From IMG/VR virus record IMGVR_UViG_2671180439_000007, positions 1 through 41,324 of that record: DNA of 41,324 bases. The stretch is one strand, 5' to 3'. Positions 29,697-37,154 of the stretch are shown here, piece by piece; position 1 is the first letter of the stretch, and each line of letters starts with the position of its first letter. The notes beneath the pieces are model-generated. The model was not told where the DNA came from. It saw only the letters and a list, made by a program, of their open reading frames with translations, and did not search any database. The DNA comes from a virus. Lineage: Duplodnaviria > Heunggongvirae > Uroviricota > Caudoviricetes. Both the position numbers and the translations under genes were made by a program.

Positions 29697-30494
29697 TCAA
29701 TGAACGGTATCGAGCAGCTTTAACAGCTCAGGGAATCTGGATTCGAAGAAATGCGGCTGCGTCTCGCGCGGATTTGCAGGACTGGTGATGTTCTTGCCGA
29801 ACATGCAGCCTTTCGCTGTCAGCGACCAGAATTTTTTGATGTTGTTAATCGCGGTACGGCTGTATCGTTCGCGTTGTTCAACGATCCCCAGCTTCGCCAT
29901 CTGGTGATATGCCTGATTAGCCGTCAGGCGGATACCATACTGCTTCAGCAGTGCACTCAGCGACAGCGTCGGGCGGCTTGAGCCATCAGGCGCGTCAGCA
30001 GGTGCATCAATGGCATAGCGCGGTGCCAGATTCGGTAAGCCAACAGCCTCCTGGAGTTTCTGACAGGCACCAAGCACTGAAGAGTTAGACAGATTTAATT
30101 CCCGGCGCATAAAGTCCAGCAGAATCACACCAGCCTTCATCTTGTCAGCAGCCTGTCCGGATAATTTTTCCGGTGCGCTGGTTACCATGTCGAAAGTACG
30201 GATCACCTTAAGATGGAATGACGGGCTTATCCACATTGCATAGGCATACACCAGTTCTTTGCAGACATACGTCCCCTGGTTATTTCCGCCACGAATAACG
30301 TTAACTGGCTCTATATTGACCGAGTTGCAAATCTGCAACTCGCTTATTAAACGTTCAGTTTGCTCATTGCGGAGCCAGAATGCAGGCTTATGCTTATCCA
30401 GAGAACCGGCAGCCCTGTGAAGATCGTTCAGGCTGTAACGACCATAAGCATCACGACGAACTTCAATACCATCAATGACCATCAGATTATTCAT
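29697..30494 (-). CDS. KilA-N domain protein (putative antirepressor-like)
   Basis: 265 aa; N-terminal IDGIEVRRDAYGRYSLNDLHRAAG pattern of KilA-N. Confidence 0.65.
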   Translation of the reverse strand: MNNLMVIDGIEVRRDAYGRYSLNDLHRAAGSLDKHKPAFWLRNEQTERLISELQICNSVNIEPVNVIRGGNNQGTYVCKELVYAYAMWISPSFHLKVIRTFDMVTSAPEKLSGQAADKMKAGVILLDFMRRELNLSNSSVLGACQKLQEAVGLPNLAPRYAIDAPADAPDGSSRPTLSLSALLKQYGIRLTANQAYHQMAKLGIVEQRERYSRTAINNIKKFWSLTAKGCMFGKNITSPANPRETQPHFFESRFPELLKLLDTVH

Positions 30495-30513
30495 ACTTCG
30501 TTTCTCCTCTTAA

Positions 30514-30903
30514 TCAGGCGGCTGCACCCGCCGTTTTCTCGTACTTACTGATAGTGATCTCGACCTTCCCTTCCGGGATAACCGGTCCCCACTCCACCAG
30601 CATTCTTTTCACCTGACTGTCGTCTTCCCACACACCCGCGTGGGTCAGGGCGTCAAACAGCGCCTTGTTATAGTTGTCCAGATCGCGGATCCGGTTATCC
30701 GGAGGAAACAACACGATCTCCACTGAAGCAGGTGCCGACGTTGGTTTCGGCAGACGACGTAACTGCTCAACTATTGCTGCGCACGCTGCGCTCTGGAATT
30801 TTCGCCCCGCCGCGCTTATCAGGCTCTTACCAGCAAACGCCCCTTTGTTGGGGTGTCGCCAGTACGTGTTCACGCTGGGCGGAAAAGGCAGGATCAGCTT
30901 CAT
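30514..30903 (-). CDS. rusA: Holliday junction resolvase RusA
   Basis: 129 aa; LPFPPSVNTYWRH and RDLDNYNKALFDALT motifs of RusA. Confidence 0.85.
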   Translation of the reverse strand: MKLILPFPPSVNTYWRHPNKGAFAGKSLISAAGRKFQSAACAAIVEQLRRLPKPTSAPASVEIVLFPPDNRIRDLDNYNKALFDALTHAGVWEDDSQVKRMLVEWGPVIPEGKVEITISKYEKTAGAAA

Positions 30904-31226
30904 ACTTTCAGGCCCCTCTCATGTAACCAGTGGGTTGCACGCAGCTTTGCGTTTTCCTCACCGGCAAGCAGTGCGCGGATAATCCCGACCGCCTCGCTGT
31001 CGTCGTCCTTCACCGCGGTATGAAGCGTTATCCCCCGGGCCACGCCACGCTTTATCGTGATGACGCCTTTTTTCTCCAGTGCGCGAAGATGCTCCACCGC
31101 TGCATTCACCGAACGGTATCCCAGCATGGTTGCCACCTCCTGATTGGTTGGCGGGAAGCCACGTTCTTTCTGATAAGAAATCAGCATATCCAGCACCTGC
31201 TGCTGGCATTGAGTTAACGTCGTCAT
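30900..31226 (-). CDS. LexA-N-terminal-like winged-helix DNA-binding protein
   Basis: 108 aa; QQVLDMLISYQKERGFPPTNQEVATMLGYRSVNAAVEHLRALEKKGVI resembles LexA DNA-binding domain; no peptidase domain. Confidence 0.5.
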   Translation of the reverse strand: MTTLTQCQQQVLDMLISYQKERGFPPTNQEVATMLGYRSVNAAVEHLRALEKKGVITIKRGVARGITLHTAVKDDDSEAVGIIRALLAGEENAKLRATHWLHERGLKV

Positions 31227-31909
31227 GCCGCCATCTCCCTGACCAGTTTTTCCGCCTGCTGGCGAACCTGCGCCAGAAAGGCCTCACCACATGCCTCAAG
31301 TTCATCGCGCCCGATGTAGCTGATTGCCGGTCCCTTCCAGGTCTTGTCGAAAACAGCAATAGCACCAGCGAAGAAAGCGCCTGTCGGCACCTGCTTCTCA
31401 TCCTTCGGGATAAACCAGGCAGGCAGTTCAAAACCAATACGCCCGCGAATAAAAGCAATATGATCTGCATCTTCCGGCCACCACACTTCGCTGGTGGCAG
31501 CTTTGATCAGGAAAACATAGCGACCGCCTTTATCACGCATGGCACTGGCATGCTTCATGATGTAACGCATGCCGGTGATGTATTGCCCCTCATGCTGACT
31601 GGCGCGGCTGTATGGGGGATTACCAAAGGCAGCACCTTTAAGCTCCGCAAGACGTTCTGACCAGTCATGTGCCAGCGCGTTGTCTTCCGCCGTGTAATAC
31701 GCGGCACATTTGGCGTTATCACCGTCAGTGAACAGATCCAGAACAAACGGACCAAACAGGGTGTTAATTCCCCAGAAAATGTTATCCGGCGTGCGCCACT
31801 GATCGCCCACTTCCTTCAGTTCATGGGCTGGTTTGTTCCGCAGCTCCACCAGCGCCCGGCAATATTTATTACTCATTAAGCCCCCACGTAATTCCCTGAC
31901 AGATACCAC
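31223..31909 (-). CDS. Phage N6-adenine DNA methyltransferase (Dam-like)
   Basis: 228 aa; WRTPDNIF and FGNPPYS motifs. Confidence 0.8.
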   Translation of the reverse strand: MVSVRELRGGLMSNKYCRALVELRNKPAHELKEVGDQWRTPDNIFWGINTLFGPFVLDLFTDGDNAKCAAYYTAEDNALAHDWSERLAELKGAAFGNPPYSRASQHEGQYITGMRYIMKHASAMRDKGGRYVFLIKAATSEVWWPEDADHIAFIRGRIGFELPAWFIPKDEKQVPTGAFFAGAIAVFDKTWKGPAISYIGRDELEACGEAFLAQVRQQAEKLVREMAA

Positions 31910-32370
31910 TCTTCACCTGATGCAGCCCGCTTGTTGCTTTTCCGTAAACACCGTTCACGACGCGCCAGAAAATTATTTCGTTCTGGCTGGGAGTGGCTTT
32001 CACGGAATGCCGCCATCCACACCGTTGCAGCACGACGGTATAAGCCCCTGGACTCCAGTTCTTCCGCCTGGCGGGTCAGGCACAAAATCACCCGCGGGTC
32101 GTTAGTGCCGACATAGAAATTGCGCACAGGTCTGGTTTCACGAACTGGTTGTGGTTCCGGCTCCTGCGCTCTCTCAGTCAGGCGCGGGAAATGTCTGCGT
32201 GTATCTCCTTCACAACGGTGAGCCACACGCCCACTCTGACGTAACTTGCTTGCTGACTGCAGAACGCGCTGCCGTGAGTAACCTGCAAAAGCATCCGCAA
32301 TGTCTCCGGAAGTACACCCCGGATGGGCTTCAATGAATTTCTGAACGTCATTCAAAAGACTCATGCTCAC
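31876..32370 (-). CDS. Hypothetical early-region protein (possible PerC-like segment)
   Basis: 164 aa; overlaps flanking genes; segment LESRGLYRRAATVWMAA loosely resembles PerC-type regulators. Confidence 0.35.
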   Translation of the reverse strand: MSMSLLNDVQKFIEAHPGCTSGDIADAFAGYSRQRVLQSASKLRQSGRVAHRCEGDTRRHFPRLTERAQEPEPQPVRETRPVRNFYVGTNDPRVILCLTRQAEELESRGLYRRAATVWMAAFRESHSQPERNNFLARRERCLRKSNKRAASGEEWYLSGNYVGA

Positions 32371-33308
32371 CCCCTGAATCCTGCCGGGATCTGGCTGTAG
32401 TCCACGTTGTCGTAACTGGATTTGAAGTACGGGTCTTCGCGTTTTTCGGTGTACGTGCTGACGGACGGCGATAAGCGCAGGGAAAGCTCATCCCATTTTT
32501 CCCGCAGCTTCGACGGGCTGAGCACGTTACGGCACCAGAACGGATCGCGGCTGACGCGGCTGTACATCTCGCAGATTTGTTTGTGAGTACGCCCATCCTG
32601 TACACACATCAGGCGAATTTCGTTTGCCCAGGCTGTCCAGTTCGGTTCTTTGGGACGAACCACCTCGCCGTCACATTCGGCAGCCTGCTCGTACAGGGCG
32701 ATGATTTTTTTCCAGAGCCACTGTGCGCAGGTCAAATCATCCTGCGTCCCCCACTGGCGCTTTTTAGAGCTGAATACAACCGCATCAGGATGGCGAGTTA
32801 AAAAATCCTGTTCAGCCGTCTGCGTGTCCGGTTGCGAAGCGTCCGGACGAGAAGGTTTTTTATCTGACGGATCATGTTTTGATTTTACTGACGGATCCCC
32901 GCCAGATTCTGACGGGTGAAAACCCGCTTTTTTGCCAGATTTCGACGCATCAAATTTTGACGGGTCAGATTTTGATGCGTCAGATTTTGACGGGTCAGAA
33001 TCTGACAGTTGAGAAAATGCCGCTGCCTGAAGCTTCGCAACGTTAAGCTGATAAACATTCGACGCATTGCGGTTACCCTGGCGACGCGCCTTACGCGTTA
33101 ACCAGCCTTCTGCTTCCAGCCGTGCGATAGCCGTTCTGACGGTACTCATCCCCGCGCCAATCTGACGGGCAATGGTTTCAATTGATGGCCAGCACACACC
33201 TTCGTCATTACTGAAATCAGCCAGGCGGGCCATAATTGCCACGCTGGATAACTTCATGCCTGATGCAGCGCAACCATCCCATACATAGCCGGTTAATTTA
33301 GTGCTCAT
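32367..33308 (-). CDS. Replication initiation protein (O-like) with internal iterons
   Basis: 313 aa; N-terminal HTH; repetitive DPSKSDASKSDPSKFDASKS region encoded by DNA iterons. Confidence 0.7.
   Translation of the reverse strand: MSTKLTGYVWDGCAASGMKLSSVAIMARLADFSNDEGVCWPSIETIARQIGAGMSTVRTAIARLEAEGWLTRKARRQGNRNASNVYQLNVAKLQAAAFSQLSDSDPSKSDASKSDPSKFDASKSGKKAGFHPSESGGDPSVKSKHDPSDKKPSRPDASQPDTQTAEQDFLTRHPDAVVFSSKKRQWGTQDDLTCAQWLWKKIIALYEQAAECDGEVVRPKEPNWTAWANEIRLMCVQDGRTHKQICEMYSRVSRDPFWCRNVLSPSKLREKWDELSLRLSPSVSTYTEKREDPYFKSSYDNVDYSQIPAGFRG
32857..33014. repeat. Iteron array (putative origin of replication) inside the O-like gene
   Basis: About eight 16-bp repeats with TGACGG-type cores (ctgacggatc, ctgacgggtg, tcgacgcatc, ttgacgggtc ...). 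Confidence 0.6.
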
Positions 33309-33317
33309 GACCGACCT

Positions 33318-33656
33318 CTACTTCCCTGAATTTACGACGAAACTGTTCGAGCGGGCTGAAGCACTCATGCTCATAGCCTTCGCGGAGGTAGATAACCCGT
33401 TGTGTTTCCGGCTCCCAACGAATGACTCTGACGGGCACTCCGTAGTGATCTTTGAACCAGCGATTAACTTGTCGCAAAGGACTGTCTCCTTCTGCCGGTT
33501 GAAATCACCCACAGCCCACTCTGCAAAGCTGTGGGTTACAATTTCCCTGTCACCTGGTACATTTACTGCATAGCAATACTCCACCTTCGCTTTTCCACCC
33601 GGTACAGGAAGCGCAATCAGTTGCGAGCGACGGTAGTGTGTTGTTAAACTGTTCAT
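33318..33656 (-). CDS. Hypothetical small early protein (frame and extent uncertain)
   Basis: 112-aa ORF; its 3' half overlaps an alternative-frame ORF (33298-33477) that has a strong AAGGAGA SD and TTG start. Confidence 0.3.
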
Positions 33657-34216
33657 GCGTTAGTTTCTCCACAGTCACGACACGCCACGGCGCCCGGAGC
33701 TGCACACTCGCGGGCGTCATTACTTTCTGAAATGCAAAAAATTTTGTAGACCAGTGCTGCATGCTCCTGCAGCTTCGAAATTGAGAGGTACAGCTCGTCG
33801 TTAATTGCTGTCTTCTCATTCGGTTCCACTACACCGTCTTCAATTGCTGAACGAATCTGTTTTGAATAACTGCCGATCTGTTCAATGACTTCCAGCAGGC
33901 GCTGGTTTATATCGGCGTTCTCTACTTCCTCAATTTCAGGAAGCGATACGAACACCCCACCAGCAGACTGTGCGACAGCATCCGCAATGTAGTGAGTGCC
34001 AGCCGCGCGCTGTAAAACCATTGCCCATCCCAGCGGGAAAATCTGATCGCCATAGGCACGAAGGCGGTTAAATAATGCGTTCTCTGTTACATCCAGCCAG
34101 TCAGCTGCTTCAGCGTAACCACCCGGCAACGCTGCGATAGTTTTTCTGACAGCTTTCACGTACCACTCAGGCTGTTTTTCTACTTTCCAGTGATACTTAC
34201 CCACGGTTAGCCTCAT
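33653..34216 (-). CDS. CII-like phage regulatory protein (CP76-type family)
   Basis: 187 aa; position immediately after cro; family assignment from recollection only. Confidence 0.5.
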
Positions 34217-34247
34217 CGTTCTGTGGTTAAAAATTGAAGGTGTTCTG

Positions 34248-34448
34248 TTAATCTTTCGGATAGATATCCGGTCTTAAGTCAGATTTCGTAATTGCACCTG
34301 ACGTGCATTGCTCAAGTTTTTTAGCCAGCACAAAACTGGCTTTTTTATAACCATTGAAAACCAGCCGTAAGTAGCCAGGTGTTGAGCCAACTTTTCCGGC
34401 CAACTCGCCCTGCTGTTCTTTGGTTAAAGAGTCCCAATACGCTTTCAT
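34248..34448 (-). CDS. Cro-like repressor
   Basis: 66 aa from ATG 34448 with GGAGG SD; HTH-like; divergent from repressor gene across a 90-bp operator region. Confidence 0.6.
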   Translation of the reverse strand: MKAYWDSLTKEQQGELAGKVGSTPGYLRLVFNGYKKASFVLAKKLEQCTSGAITKSDLRPDIYPKD

Positions 34449-34453
34449 ACAAT

Positions 34454-34522
34454 ATGTACCTCCGGTATACATATTACATGATTGAAATGAACCTTCAAGA
34501 TACTTGTACCTTATCGGTACAA
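34454..34522. promoter_or_regulatory. Right operator region: two 19-bp ATGTA-N9-TACAT-type palindromes
   Basis: ATGTACCTCCGGTATACAT (34454-34472) and TTGTACCTTATCGGTACAA (34504-34522) between cro and repressor starts. Confidence 0.55.
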
Positions 34523-34538
34523 AGGTTTTAATTTCGTT

Positions 34539-35213
34539 ATGAAAACAATCCATGACATCCGGCGGTCTAACGCCAGAAAACTGAGAGATGGTGTTGGCGG
34601 AAATTCATCCTTTGCCACCATGATTGATCGCGAGCCAACCCAAACCAGCAGGTTTATGGGGGATGGCGCTACTAAAAATATCGGTGACAGCATGGCACGG
34701 CACATCGAAAAATGTTTCGACCTGCCTGTCGGATGGCTTGATCAAGAACACCAGACAACGAACATCACAAAAAAACCTGATGTTTCAATCACTAACAAAC
34801 AAATAACGTTAGTCCCTGTCATATCATGGGTACAGGCCGGAGCATGGAAAGAAGTTGGCTATTCTGAGGTTGATTTGAGCACAGCAGAAACGTATCCCTG
34901 CCCTGTACCCTGTGGCGAAATGACTTATATCTTGCGGGTGATTGGTGATTCAATGATTGATGAGTACCGCCCTGGAGACATGATTTTTGTTGATCCCGAA
35001 GTCCCTGCCTGCCACGGTGACGACGTTATTGCATTGATGCACGATACAGGCGAAACCACCTTCAAGCGATTGATAGAAGATGGAACACAGCGTTATCTCA
35101 AAGCATTAAACCCAAACTGGCCTGAGCCTTACATTAAGATTAACGGTAATTGCTCTATAATTGGTACAGTGATTTTCTCGGGAAAACCAAGAAGATACAC
35201 AATAAAGGCCTAA
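34539..35213 (+). CDS. Prophage repressor, P22 C2 / lambda cI-like with S24 peptidase domain
   Basis: 224 aa; C-terminal VIGDSM...GDMIFVDPEV...KALNPNWPEPYIKINGNCSIIG closely parallels P22 C2 as recalled. Confidence 0.85.
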   Translation: MKTIHDIRRSNARKLRDGVGGNSSFATMIDREPTQTSRFMGDGATKNIGDSMARHIEKCFDLPVGWLDQEHQTTNITKKPDVSITNKQITLVPVISWVQAGAWKEVGYSEVDLSTAETYPCPVPCGEMTYILRVIGDSMIDEYRPGDMIFVDPEVPACHGDDVIALMHDTGETTFKRLIEDGTQRYLKALNPNWPEPYIKINGNCSIIGTVIFSGKPRRYTIKA

Positions 35214-35225
35214 TCAATATTTATG

Positions 35226-35248
35226 AACCTGCTTCGGCAGGTTTTTTT
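35226..35248 (+). terminator. Intrinsic terminator after repressor gene
   Basis: AACCTGC-TTCG-GCAGGTT followed by TTTTTTT. Confidence 0.55.
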
Positions 35249-35252
35249 ATAC

Positions 35253-35280
35253 TTGACAATGTACCCATGAGATACATAAT
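35253..35280 (+). promoter_or_regulatory. pL-like promoter with operator in its spacer
   Basis: TTGACA 16-nt spacer CATAAT; third operator copy ATGTACCCATGAGATACAT (35259-35277) inside. Confidence 0.5.
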
Positions 35281-35901
35281 GTATCTAAAAGAAACATAAC
35301 ACAGGCAAGATTAAAACAAAATTTGGTTGTAACACGGCGTATGGCACATGCGTCGTTAGCGGTCTGGTGACGTTAAAGGGGACAATCCACTCCTTGCTCG
35401 AGCAAACAAACCAGGTAGCCGGAATGTGCAAGTCAATGATGATGCTGATAAGACGCCTAACCAGCGTGGCGATTCGGTTTGACGCCTGGGAAGAGACCAG
35501 GGTGCAACGATGAGGGCATTTATGGAGCCGCGACAAAGTGTGGTGCCGTAACTGGCTAAGTGCTCTCAGCGTTGTGGTGAATGCGCAGACTGATGCGCGA
35601 AAGACATTGCAGCTATTGCGGAAAAGAGCTGTTCGGCGGGGCAATTAAACGCCCGTGAGAGTCTGAAATAACCGCAAGCCGGAGATCAGCACCGGTCACC
35701 ACAACAGCCACTGCTTTGGCGGTACCAGTTTGTACACTTGCTTCCGGCTGGTACCGCTCTTTTTACAAAACAGAGAAGAGCATCACCGGACGACGGGCTC
35801 ATAACCCAATCCATCCGGGCGGCTGCCACCGCAGGTGTTCTTCTCTGTTTTGTGGAGAAACTAACCGACCTTGCAGGGTCGATATGATGAGGAGCAGCAA
35901 A

Positions 35902-36264
35902 ATGGCTAGCGAACGCAGTACTGATGTGCAGGCATTTATCGGGGAGCTGGACGGCGGCGTATTTGAAACCAAAATCGGCGCAGTTCTCAGTGAAGTCGCT
36001 TCCGGTGTGATGAACACGAAAACCAAAGGTAAGGTCTCGCTCAACCTGGAAATCGAACCATTTGATGAGAACCGTGTGAAAATCAAACACAAACTCTCAT
36101 ATGTTCGCCCGACTAACCGCGGGAAAATTTCCGAAGAAGACACCACCGAAACACCGATGTATGTCAATCGCGGTGGTCGCCTGACTATTCTGCAGGAAGA
36201 CCAGGGACAATTACTGACTCTTGCCGGTGAACCTGACGGAAAACTCCGCGCAGCAGGTCATTAA
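35902..36264 (+). CDS. Hypothetical protein (YfdP-like)
   Basis: Start set at ATG 35902 with GAGGAG SD; first gene of the leftward operon. Confidence 0.45.
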   Translation: MASERSTDVQAFIGELDGGVFETKIGAVLSEVASGVMNTKTKGKVSLNLEIEPFDENRVKIKHKLSYVRPTNRGKISEEDTTETPMYVNRGGRLTILQEDQGQLLTLAGEPDGKLRAAGH

Positions 36265-36329
36265 TATCGTTCTTAATTAACTGATTATTTATCTCATCAC
36301 TGAATATCTTTATATAGTGAGGACTTATT

Positions 36330-37154
36330 ATGTCTCAGAACTTAGACGCAACCGAAATTAATCAAATCCATGCCCTTATTTCTGCTCAGGGTGTTAATGA
36401 AATTATCAGTAAGATTGGTGCCGATGCTGTGGCATTGCCTGAGAATTTCCGCATTCATGATCTGGAAAAATTTAATTTAAATCGCTTCCGTTTCCGTGGT
36501 GCGCTTTCCACTGCCAGCATCGATGACTTTACCCGTTATTCTAAAGATCTTGCAGATGAAGGCACCCGCTGCTTTATCGATGCTGATAATATGCGAGCCG
36601 TCAGTGTGCTTAACCTGGGTACTATTGATGAACCAGGTCACGCAGATAACACCGCCACTCTCAAACTGAAAAAGACAGCACCGTTCTCTGCCCTGTTGTC
36701 TGTTAACGGCGAGCGTAACTCCCAGAAGTCACTGGCAGAATGGATTGAAGACTGGGCCGACTACCTTGTGGGCTTTGATGCTAATGGTGACGCCATTCAG
36801 GCAACAAAAGCGGCTGCGGCGGTCCGTAAAATCACGATTGAAGCAAACCAGACCGCTGATTTTGAAGACAATGACTTCAGCGGCAAACGCTCTCTGATGG
36901 AGTCTGTCGAAGCGAAAACTAAAGACATTATGCCAGTAGCATTTGAGTTTAAATGCGTTCCGTTTGAAGGCCTGAAAGAACGTCCGTTTAAATTACGCCT
37001 CAGCATTATCACTGGTGATCGCCCTGTACTGGTTCTGCGCATTATTCAGCTGGAAGCAGTACAGGAAGAAATGGCTAACGAATTTCGTAATCTGCTTGTT
37101 GAAAAATTCAAAGACAGCAAAGTAGAAACCTTTATTGGTACTTTCACCGCCTGA
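36330..37154 (+). CDS. YfdQ-like protein (DUF2303)
   Basis: 274 aa; sequence pattern as recalled for CPS-53-type YfdQ. Confidence 0.55.

Follow-up and report, generated by a model that had tools for sequence, protein, structure and literature searches.

The stretch of DNA analyzed here, positions 1–41,324 (its full length) of IMG/VR virus record IMGVR_UViG_2671180439_000007 and called the window below, is a lambdoid prophage of the SfII/SfIV type from Escherichia coli or Shigella. On its minus strand, positions 32367–33308 hold a gene for a 313-residue, O-like replication initiator (open reading frame (ORF) list, Pfam, PHROG), and the middle of this gene carries an array of short repeats. A first-pass annotation had described about eight repeats of 16 bp that share a TGACGG core and lie within the coding sequence, and had likened them to the origin inside the O gene of phage lambda. 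The number and the core are correct: TGACGG occurs exactly at five places on the plus strand within 158 bp (32865, 32889, 32910, 32958 and 32988), variant cores lie at 32943 (CGACGCATCA) and 32973 (TGATGCGTCA), and a degenerate core lies at 33003 (TGACAGTTGA). The unit length is not, as Tandem Repeats Finder returned a period of 15 bp, equivalent to five codons, with 4.3 copies at 32936–32999. In total, the array comprises four tandem 15-bp units, one degenerate unit and three spaced units (five exact and three variant cores), the non-tandem copies being spaced by 21–33 bp. The features discussed below, all within the O-like gene, are:

32940–32999, four tandem 15-bp putative iterons, in gene orientation TCTGACCCGTCAAAA / TCTGACGCATCAAAA / TCTGACCCGTCAAAA / TTTGATGCGTCGAAA (Tandem Repeats Finder, pattern matches)
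33000–33014, fifth, degenerate unit at the array edge nearer the promoter, in gene orientation TCTCAACTGTCAGAT (repeat family D1, copy 32981–33010)
32910–32919, spaced iteron-like site 1, in gene orientation TTTCACCCGTCAGAA, almost invariant in the family (pattern search, alignment)
32889–32898, spaced iteron-like site 2, in gene orientation GGGGATCCGTCAGTA, holding a conserved GATC (pattern search, alignment)
32865–32874, spaced iteron-like site 3, in gene orientation ATGATCCGTCAGATAAAAAA, holding a second GATC (pattern search)
33018–33308, region coding for the N-terminal winged helix (residues 1–97)
32804–33011, zone under nucleotide-level constraint, proposed origin core (codon-identity profile)
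32804–32856, conserved segment distal to the putative iterons (repeat family D5, codon profile, DNA alignment)

A search with the 15-mer TTTTGACGGGTCAGA, allowing up to three mismatches, gave five overlapping matches in the array and one elsewhere in the 41 kb, and thus revealed no further cluster of the motif in the window. The shorter 10-bp core TGAYGSRTCA, with up to one mismatch, matched 46 times, compared to 19.2 ± 5.5 times in shuffled sequences, and 12 of these 46 matches fell in the array. As the first-pass annotation had noted, the encoded peptide is repetitive; on the minus strand, the O-like ORF reads through the array as SDSDPSKSDASKSDPSKFDASKS. The repeat units at 32865–33014 correspond to codons of about 99–148, which lie between a winged helix and a helical domain of the protein.

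This domain organization emerged from several comparisons. At E ≤ 0.01, a Pfam scan of the O-like protein placed HTH_36 at residues 23–70 (E = 4.3e-11), gave matches to GntR, HTH_29, PaaX, DnaD_N, RP-C and MarR as well, all within residues 21–90, and gave no match to Phage_rep_O (PF04492). Over its entire length (residues 1–313) the protein aligned with positions 1–298 of the 298-position profile PHROG 391, "replication initiation O-like" (E = 5.2e-135). By sequence comparison, its C-terminal domain is homologous to that of lambda O: residues 166–277 are 39% identical to lambda O in tblastn, and BLASTP (E = 4e-26) aligned the two proteins only from the linker onward, with a conserved block at residues 173–270 of lambda O. 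The same region shares 34–46% identity over about 110 residues with phi80 gp15 and its relatives (tblastn). An AlphaFold2 model built from 25 sequences displays a winged helix-turn-helix at residues 1–97 and a helical domain at residues 161–280 with a predicted local distance difference test (pLDDT) score of 84–95, separated by residues 101–160 with a pLDDT of about 30. Residues 101–160 are thus a predicted disordered linker between two folded domains, and it is this linker that the array encodes. Structure searches with the N-terminal part matched winged-helix proteins only, including the N-terminal domain of DnaD, and we presume that the N-terminal winged helix (residues 1–97) is the reader of the repeats.

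We then compared the array among 79 loci with relatives of the N-terminal 97 residues, sampled as one genome per species, plus four phages. The array is kept in 70 distinct (non-identical) genes of Enterobacterales, from Escherichia to Proteus, Providencia and Yersinia, so that the repeats do persist in homologs, including initiators with a lambda-O-like and with a Phg_2220_C C-terminal domain. In these 70 genes, the N-terminal domain is 62–93% identical to that of the window at the amino acid level but only 34–59% identical at third codon positions, and the mean major-codon share at its 55 conserved residues is 0.54; synonymous sites are therefore close to randomized. The repeat units of the same genes behave differently. 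The Ser of the D-x-S unit is encoded by TCA in 363 of 394 units (92%), compared to 226 of 1384 Ser codons (16%) elsewhere, and the Lys of the units is AAA in 199 of 199 cases, compared to 654 of 1045 (63%) elsewhere. In the middle codon of the unit, C occupies the second base in 88% and a purine the third base in 89%, whereas the first base is under no constraint, which accounts for the P/A/T/G swaps in the peptide. Variation of the peptide therefore coincides with the one unconstrained base of a DNA motif that reads about TCTGAYNCRTCARAA.

A codon-identity profile across 14 genes of the same architecture, giving the fraction of identical codons at positions with identical amino acids, reached 0.75–0.97 over codons of about 100–168 only, compared to 0.35–0.55 (about 0.45) in both flanking domains. 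These codons correspond to positions 32804–33011 of the window. The first-pass annotation had delimited the array as 32857–33014; the repeats do lie there, but the constrained zone is wider on the low-coordinate side, where it reaches about 55 bp past the last repeat. Not all of the zone is conserved: the free base of each unit diverges, and so does the spacer that separates the tandem from the spaced units, which speaks against a recent transfer of the segment as a whole as the cause of the conservation. In addition, copy number differs by whole in-frame units among close relatives of 303, 313 and 323 residues. We conclude from these alignments that the repeats are conserved as DNA, beyond the needs of the encoded peptide. 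The part of the zone beyond the repeats, 32804–32856, exhibits a GTCCGG...CCGGAC symmetry, two 14-nt direct repeats 15 bp apart (32826–32839 and 32841–32854) and a same-codon fraction of 0.81–0.93 over codons 151–165, and it may be an unwinding or loading site. Of all 40-nt stretches of the region, the one around spaced site 3 (32850–32891) is the richest in A+T, at 70%.

Several further signals in this zone were considered. Single-strand DNA folding of the zone was better than that of shuffled sequences (z = −3.9), but this excess follows from the symmetric units and is therefore not independent evidence. The dyad symmetry of the array also accounts for the position of the sole match in an Rfam scan of 30000–36500, a spurious hit to "mir-5880" with 30.7 bits against a gathering score of 97. 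On the plus strand, antisense to the O-like gene, a terminator-like hairpin with a T-run (CGGGTGAAAACCCG CTTTTTTG) occupies positions 32913–32926 in the spacer between tandem and spaced units; since this spacer is not conserved in relatives, the hairpin is probably due to chance. A promoter and terminator scan yielded nothing informative.

The array is linked to the DNA-binding domain of the initiator rather than to its C-terminal part. Two unrelated C-terminal domains occur in the family, the lambda-O-like one (the window and 13 others) and Pfam Phg_2220_C (the majority), and the same array follows the same N-terminal domain with either of them. The C-terminal types were assigned by comparison to reference sequences, as single linkage merged all of them via shared tails. 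Conversely, relatives whose N-terminal domains are only 34–41% identical carry different repeats at the same position. In Thorsellia, these are five to six copies of AGGGGTGACACAGTGACA with a period of 22 bp, which is out of frame, so that no peptide repeat is possible; Phlomobacter has three repeat copies at 22–23 bp, Thermomonas has 18-bp units and Psychrobacter has 21-nt units. Replacement of the repeats along with the N-terminal domain is the pattern expected of initiator-specific iterons.

Based on these results, we suggest, with a probability of roughly 0.75, that the array is the initiator-binding (iteron) part of the prophage replication origin, located inside the linker-coding part of the initiator gene. 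The first-pass comparison with the lambda origin within O is borne out by the nucleotide-level constraint, the co-inheritance of the array with the N-terminal domain, its replacement in distant relatives and the lambda-O-type C-terminal domain. After derepression, transcription from the early-right promoter would give rise to the 313-residue O-like protein, whose N-terminal winged helix would bind sites with the above consensus. The four tandem units spaced by 15 bp and the three copies spaced by 21–33 bp would thereby nucleate a multi-protein complex on about 200 bp (32804–33011), and the lambda-O-type C-terminal domain would then recruit the replicative helicase. This phage type has no gene for an analog of P, DnaC or DnaB, and the helicase would thus most likely be delivered by the host as a DnaB-DnaC complex, in the manner of iteron plasmids; we put the chance of direct use of host DnaB-DnaC at even or slightly below. 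Protein binding to the sites, origin firing at this position and the helicase-loading route are all inferred.

A number of observations weigh against this interpretation or fit a textbook origin poorly. No strongly AT-rich unwinding element lies beside the sites; the best 40-nt stretch, spanning spaced site 3, is at about the 96th percentile of the window (95th, 67.5%; 99th, 75%), a modest enrichment. DnaA boxes (TTWTNCACA) occur three times in the 41 kb, which is chance level, the nearest being 2.6 kb from the array. Nor does the segment at 32804–32856, conserved at synonymous sites with its symmetry and direct repeat, resemble a textbook origin. In lambda, phi80 and Pm34, the homologous C-terminal domain has a P-type loader gene as its partner, whereas here it would have to work without one. 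The codon counts are taken from genes that are not phylogenetically independent, with the flanking domains serving as an internal control. Finally, no published experiment on this initiator family was found in the searchable literature.

The lack of a clear AT-rich element or DnaA box beside the array would also fit sites that are bound by the initiator mainly for control, i.e. for autoregulation of the operon, titration or handcuffing of the initiator, or exclusion of related phages, with unwinding and loading taking place elsewhere. Iterons in plasmids are known to have such control roles. Yet the constrained zone runs on for about 55 bp past the last site, as expected if a functional element adjoins it, the window holds no second cluster of the motif, and in the characterized, homologous systems of lambda and phi80 the in-gene sites are the origin; we therefore regard a mainly regulatory array as unlikely. 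The sites might instead be read by another protein, such as a host factor, a PerC-like or winged-helix protein, a protein with a LexA DNA-binding domain (DBD), or a methylation-dependent binder at the GATC sites. Two conserved GATC sites in the array, DNA methyltransferase genes as the commonest neighbors and several small DNA-binding proteins encoded nearby are in line with this idea, but six of the eight units lack GATC, the array persists at loci without PerC-like, LexA-DBD or Dam genes, and it changes along with the N-terminal domain of the initiator, all of which renders a foreign reader very unlikely.

That the repeats only encode a flexible Ser/Asp/Lys linker in a low-complexity sequence prone to slippage, and have no function as DNA, is hardly credible and already disfavored. 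A 15-bp unit does equal five codons, the peptide is repetitive and predicted to be disordered, and copy number varies. However, synonymous positions in the units are fixed (TCA 92%, AAA 100%) while the middle amino acid is free, synonymous sites in the flanking domains of the same genes are near saturation, and the 22-bp-period repeats of the distant relatives cannot be peptide repeats. The origin interpretation, with its initiator-bound sites conserved as DNA, thus remains the one we favor, and it leads to the question of how a helicase would be loaded. The early-right operon lies on the minus strand, with cI on the plus strand, and the genes on either side of the O-like gene are:

34539–35213, plus strand, cI
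34248–34553, minus strand, cro-like gene
33653–34216, minus strand, cII/YmfL-like gene
33298–33477, minus strand, small DUF4222 ORF
31876–32370, minus strand, 164-residue ORF, PerC-family regulator (YfdN-like) with a winged-helix-like N-terminal region (Pfam, PHROG, RefSeq)
31223–31909, minus strand, Dam-type N6-adenine DNA methyltransferase (Pfam Dam, E = 1.2e-45)
30900–31226, minus strand, LexA-DBD-only protein of 108 residues
30514–30903, minus strand, RusA
29697–30494, minus strand, KilA-N

The initiator gene is thus followed by genes for PerC, Dam, LexA-DBD, RusA and KilA-N proteins, and a P, DnaC or DnaB analog was detected neither in this early-right operon nor in the early-left region or around Q of the window, in agreement with the first-pass remark that no recognizable loader follows. 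The same holds for related loci. The 2.5 kb downstream of the initiator in about 68 of them hold 150 ORFs, among which Pfam identified Dam in 33, C5 methylase in 18, RusA in 14, LexA_DNA_bind in 12, D12 methylase in 9, PerC in 8 and MT-A70 in 7, compared to a single ORF each for lambda P (PF06992), IstB-like and Toprim/AAA_25, the first two of which were also confirmed individually. Only 3 of the roughly 68 loci therefore contain a loader or helicase gene downstream, and none does among the 14 genes for initiators with the lambda-O-like C-terminal domain. Absence of a loader is the norm for this initiator family.

The 164-residue ORF had been described as a protein of unknown type that overlaps the end of the O-like gene and could be a non-canonical helicase loader partnering the O-like protein. 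It does occupy the position that P holds in lambda, no other loader is present, and translational coupling to the O-like gene would be possible through a GTGA overlap. This overlap depends on the start codon: with GTG at 32370, the protein has 164 residues and the ORF overlaps the O stop by 4 nt, but with ATG at 32364 it has 162 residues and a 2-nt gap replaces the overlap. Profile searches assigned the protein to the PerC family (PF06069; residues 100–151, 35.6 bits compared to a cut-off of 22.6) and to PHROG 1324, "transcriptional activator" (E = 6.6e-79), with an NCBIfam ANR match below its cut-off (23.5 compared to 32), and its RefSeq name is yfdN, PerC family regulator. Searches of Pfam, PHROGs and NCBIfam returned no match to a loader family, and BLASTP against lambda P gave only matches of 5–8 residues (E = 0.21). 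Moreover, ORFs of this type are present in only about 20 of the approximately 68 related loci and are also missing after initiators that share this C-terminal domain type; Klebsiella phage 1 LV-2017, for instance, has Dam directly after a 72% identical full-length initiator and no PerC-like gene there. We therefore rejected the ORF as a loader, a role that its PerC identity, its dissimilarity to lambda P and its absence from most related loci make highly improbable. On present evidence it is a neighbor outside the replication machinery, and it is not needed for the origin model.

The two GATC sites, at 32870 and 32894, lie inside two of the spaced iteron-like units and are conserved in the family; GGNGATCCRTYAGTA is present in 63 of the 70 family genes. 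Methyltransferase genes are by far the commonest downstream neighbors, with 67 domain matches among the 150 ORFs. Origin control coupled to methylation is known for oriC and the P1 origin. Together, the conserved GATC sites and the methyltransferase neighbors suggest such coupling here as well, and the Dam-type methyltransferase may be linked to the GATC sites of the putative origin.

Side observations on the initiator family concern its C-terminal tails and its distribution. A short tail (...DYSxIPxGFRG/S), encoded in the window by the last approximately 19 codons (32367–32423), ends initiators with either C-terminal domain, for instance at loci L003, L016 and L037 and at other loci, and an alternative, longer tail (...WNxIWKExxQR...) is likewise found with both. 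In the different O protein of Shiga toxin (Stx) 2c phages, the last 33 residues are 79% identical to this tail region. These tails look like exchangeable docking peptides. In two E. coli chromosomes (L056 and L076, 2501–3868), a 455-residue ORF starts with the first 79 residues of the initiator (99% identical), then runs into unrelated sequence and contains no array; apparently, this is a deletion fusion within a defective prophage, and we presume that it resembles ymfN of e14. The initiator also appears in records of non-enterobacterial hosts, namely Vagococcus (L014), Chryseobacterium (L038), Martelella (L041) and "Elizabethkingia phage EKP1" (L005). Identity of the N-terminal domain is 82–89% in the three genome records and 61% in EKP1, and these records are probably due to contamination or mis-assigned hosts.

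The module is widespread. Positions 31800–33400 are 97–99% identical to phages Kati, SfII and SfIV and to several E. coli phages, this exact module is present in the isolated phages SfII, SfIV and Kati, and SfII has the same gene order as the window up to Q; between cI and Q of SfII, no other annotated replication gene was found. Of 5426 complete E. coli genomes, 1576 (about 29%) contain at least 80% of the length of the O-like gene, yet its annotation is only "helix-turn-helix domain-containing protein". The paper on SfIV says of its replication module (orf41–45) only that it resembles those of SfII and SfV, and the replication regions described for Stx phages (Eru types) are module types other than this one (PMC8044961). 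The paper on epsilon34 and literature on yfdO/yfdN contained nothing informative on this module.

In Stx2- and Stx2c-converting phages, the match to the window is limited to 31800–32442 (97% identity), spanning the 5' end of Dam, the PerC-like gene and the last approximately 75 nt of the O-like gene; as the match ends at about 32443, a mosaic joint is located within the initiator gene, close to its 3' end. Directly upstream of the O-like gene, two minus-strand ORFs overlap in different frames. The 59-residue ORF at 33298–33477 matches Pfam DUF4222 (E = 5e-19) and is the one in the RefSeq annotation, the 112-residue ORF at 33318–33656 is annotated in the SfII record and has its own PHROG (1170), and one of the two is probably mis-called, at least in part. 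Further downstream, the genes for the LexA-DBD protein and RusA (30514–31226) are adjacent and overlapping. This pairing is seen in many loci (12 LexA_DNA_bind and 14 RusA matches), and in Kluyvera (L073, 4227–4850) both are fused in one 208-residue ORF.

If the array is part of an origin, the remaining point of interest is how a lambda-O-type C-terminal domain works without P. We tentatively envisage a loaderless initiator of the lambda-O type, in which either the C-terminal domain or the short tail (...DYSxIPxGFRG) common to initiators with unrelated C-terminal domains docks host DnaB-DnaC or another host primosome factor directly, firing being perhaps tied to Dam-type methylation of the two origin GATC sites; we consider this proposal possible, though on balance doubtful. 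If true, it would represent a third way of helicase recruitment in lambdoid phages, beside P-type hijacking and phage-encoded helicases. The annotation gap is large, as the module is very common and also occurs in the serotype-converting Shigella phages SfII and SfIV. A simple rule would help to close it: a replication initiator and its putative origin can be recognized by repeats in the linker that follows an HTH_36 domain. The proposed 200-bp origin would be a testable element for studies of prophage induction, for marker-frequency analysis and for vector design.

One of the closest known systems is the lambda origin with its O and P genes, found also in the Stx phages P27 and 933W. There as here, iterons lie in the middle of the initiator gene, the gene is located in the early-right operon after cro and cII, the C-terminal domain corresponds to residues 173–270 of lambda O (39% identity), and the number of iterons changes in in-frame steps; the O protein of Stx phages, for example, is 13 residues longer where two further iterons are present (PMC7466680). 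Unlike in lambda, the N-terminal domain here is an HTH_36 winged helix that lacks a Pfam Phage_rep_O match, the repeat sequence and the 15-bp tandem spacing differ, a pronounced AT-rich tract is missing and no P gene follows. Phi80 (gp15/gp14) and Proteus phage Pm34 ("replication protein 15"/P) share the homologous C-terminal domain (34–46% identity, about 110 residues), and four annotated gp15 binding sites inside gene 15 of phi80, about 365–440 nt from its start, occupy a position equivalent to the array. In both phages, however, the N-terminal domains and the site sequences differ, and a lambda-P-like loader gene follows.

Further resemblances link the initiator to DnaD-like proteins or "replisome organizers" of Gram-positive phages. 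It matches PHROG 2514, "DnaD-like helicase loader" (E = 5.7e-29), and PHROG 4880, "replisome organizer" (E = 6e-12), Bacillus phage proteins so named, these names being annotations, are 37–47% identical over residues of about 190–278 (tblastn), and the DnaD N-terminal domain is a structural neighbor of the initiator N-terminal domain. The gene set of such phages, unlike that of the present one, normally extends to a DnaC/DnaI-type loader or a helicase. Iteron plasmids, such as pSC101 (RepA), R6K (π), RK2 (TrfA) and P1 (RepA), likewise combine a winged-helix initiator with direct repeats, the proteins being compared here at the level of the generic winged-helix fold. In these plasmids, the initiator binds the repeats, and helicase loading relies on host DnaB-DnaC, as the plasmids have no helicase or loader of their own. 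Their origins are usually outside the rep gene, in contrast to the array, and DnaA boxes and a clear AT-rich element are usual components of them, neither of which was found here. We thus picture the putative origin as an ordinary lambda-style arrangement with its own iteron sequence and winged-helix reader, the twist being that it would work without a helicase loader of its own, for which the iteron plasmids provide the working analogy.

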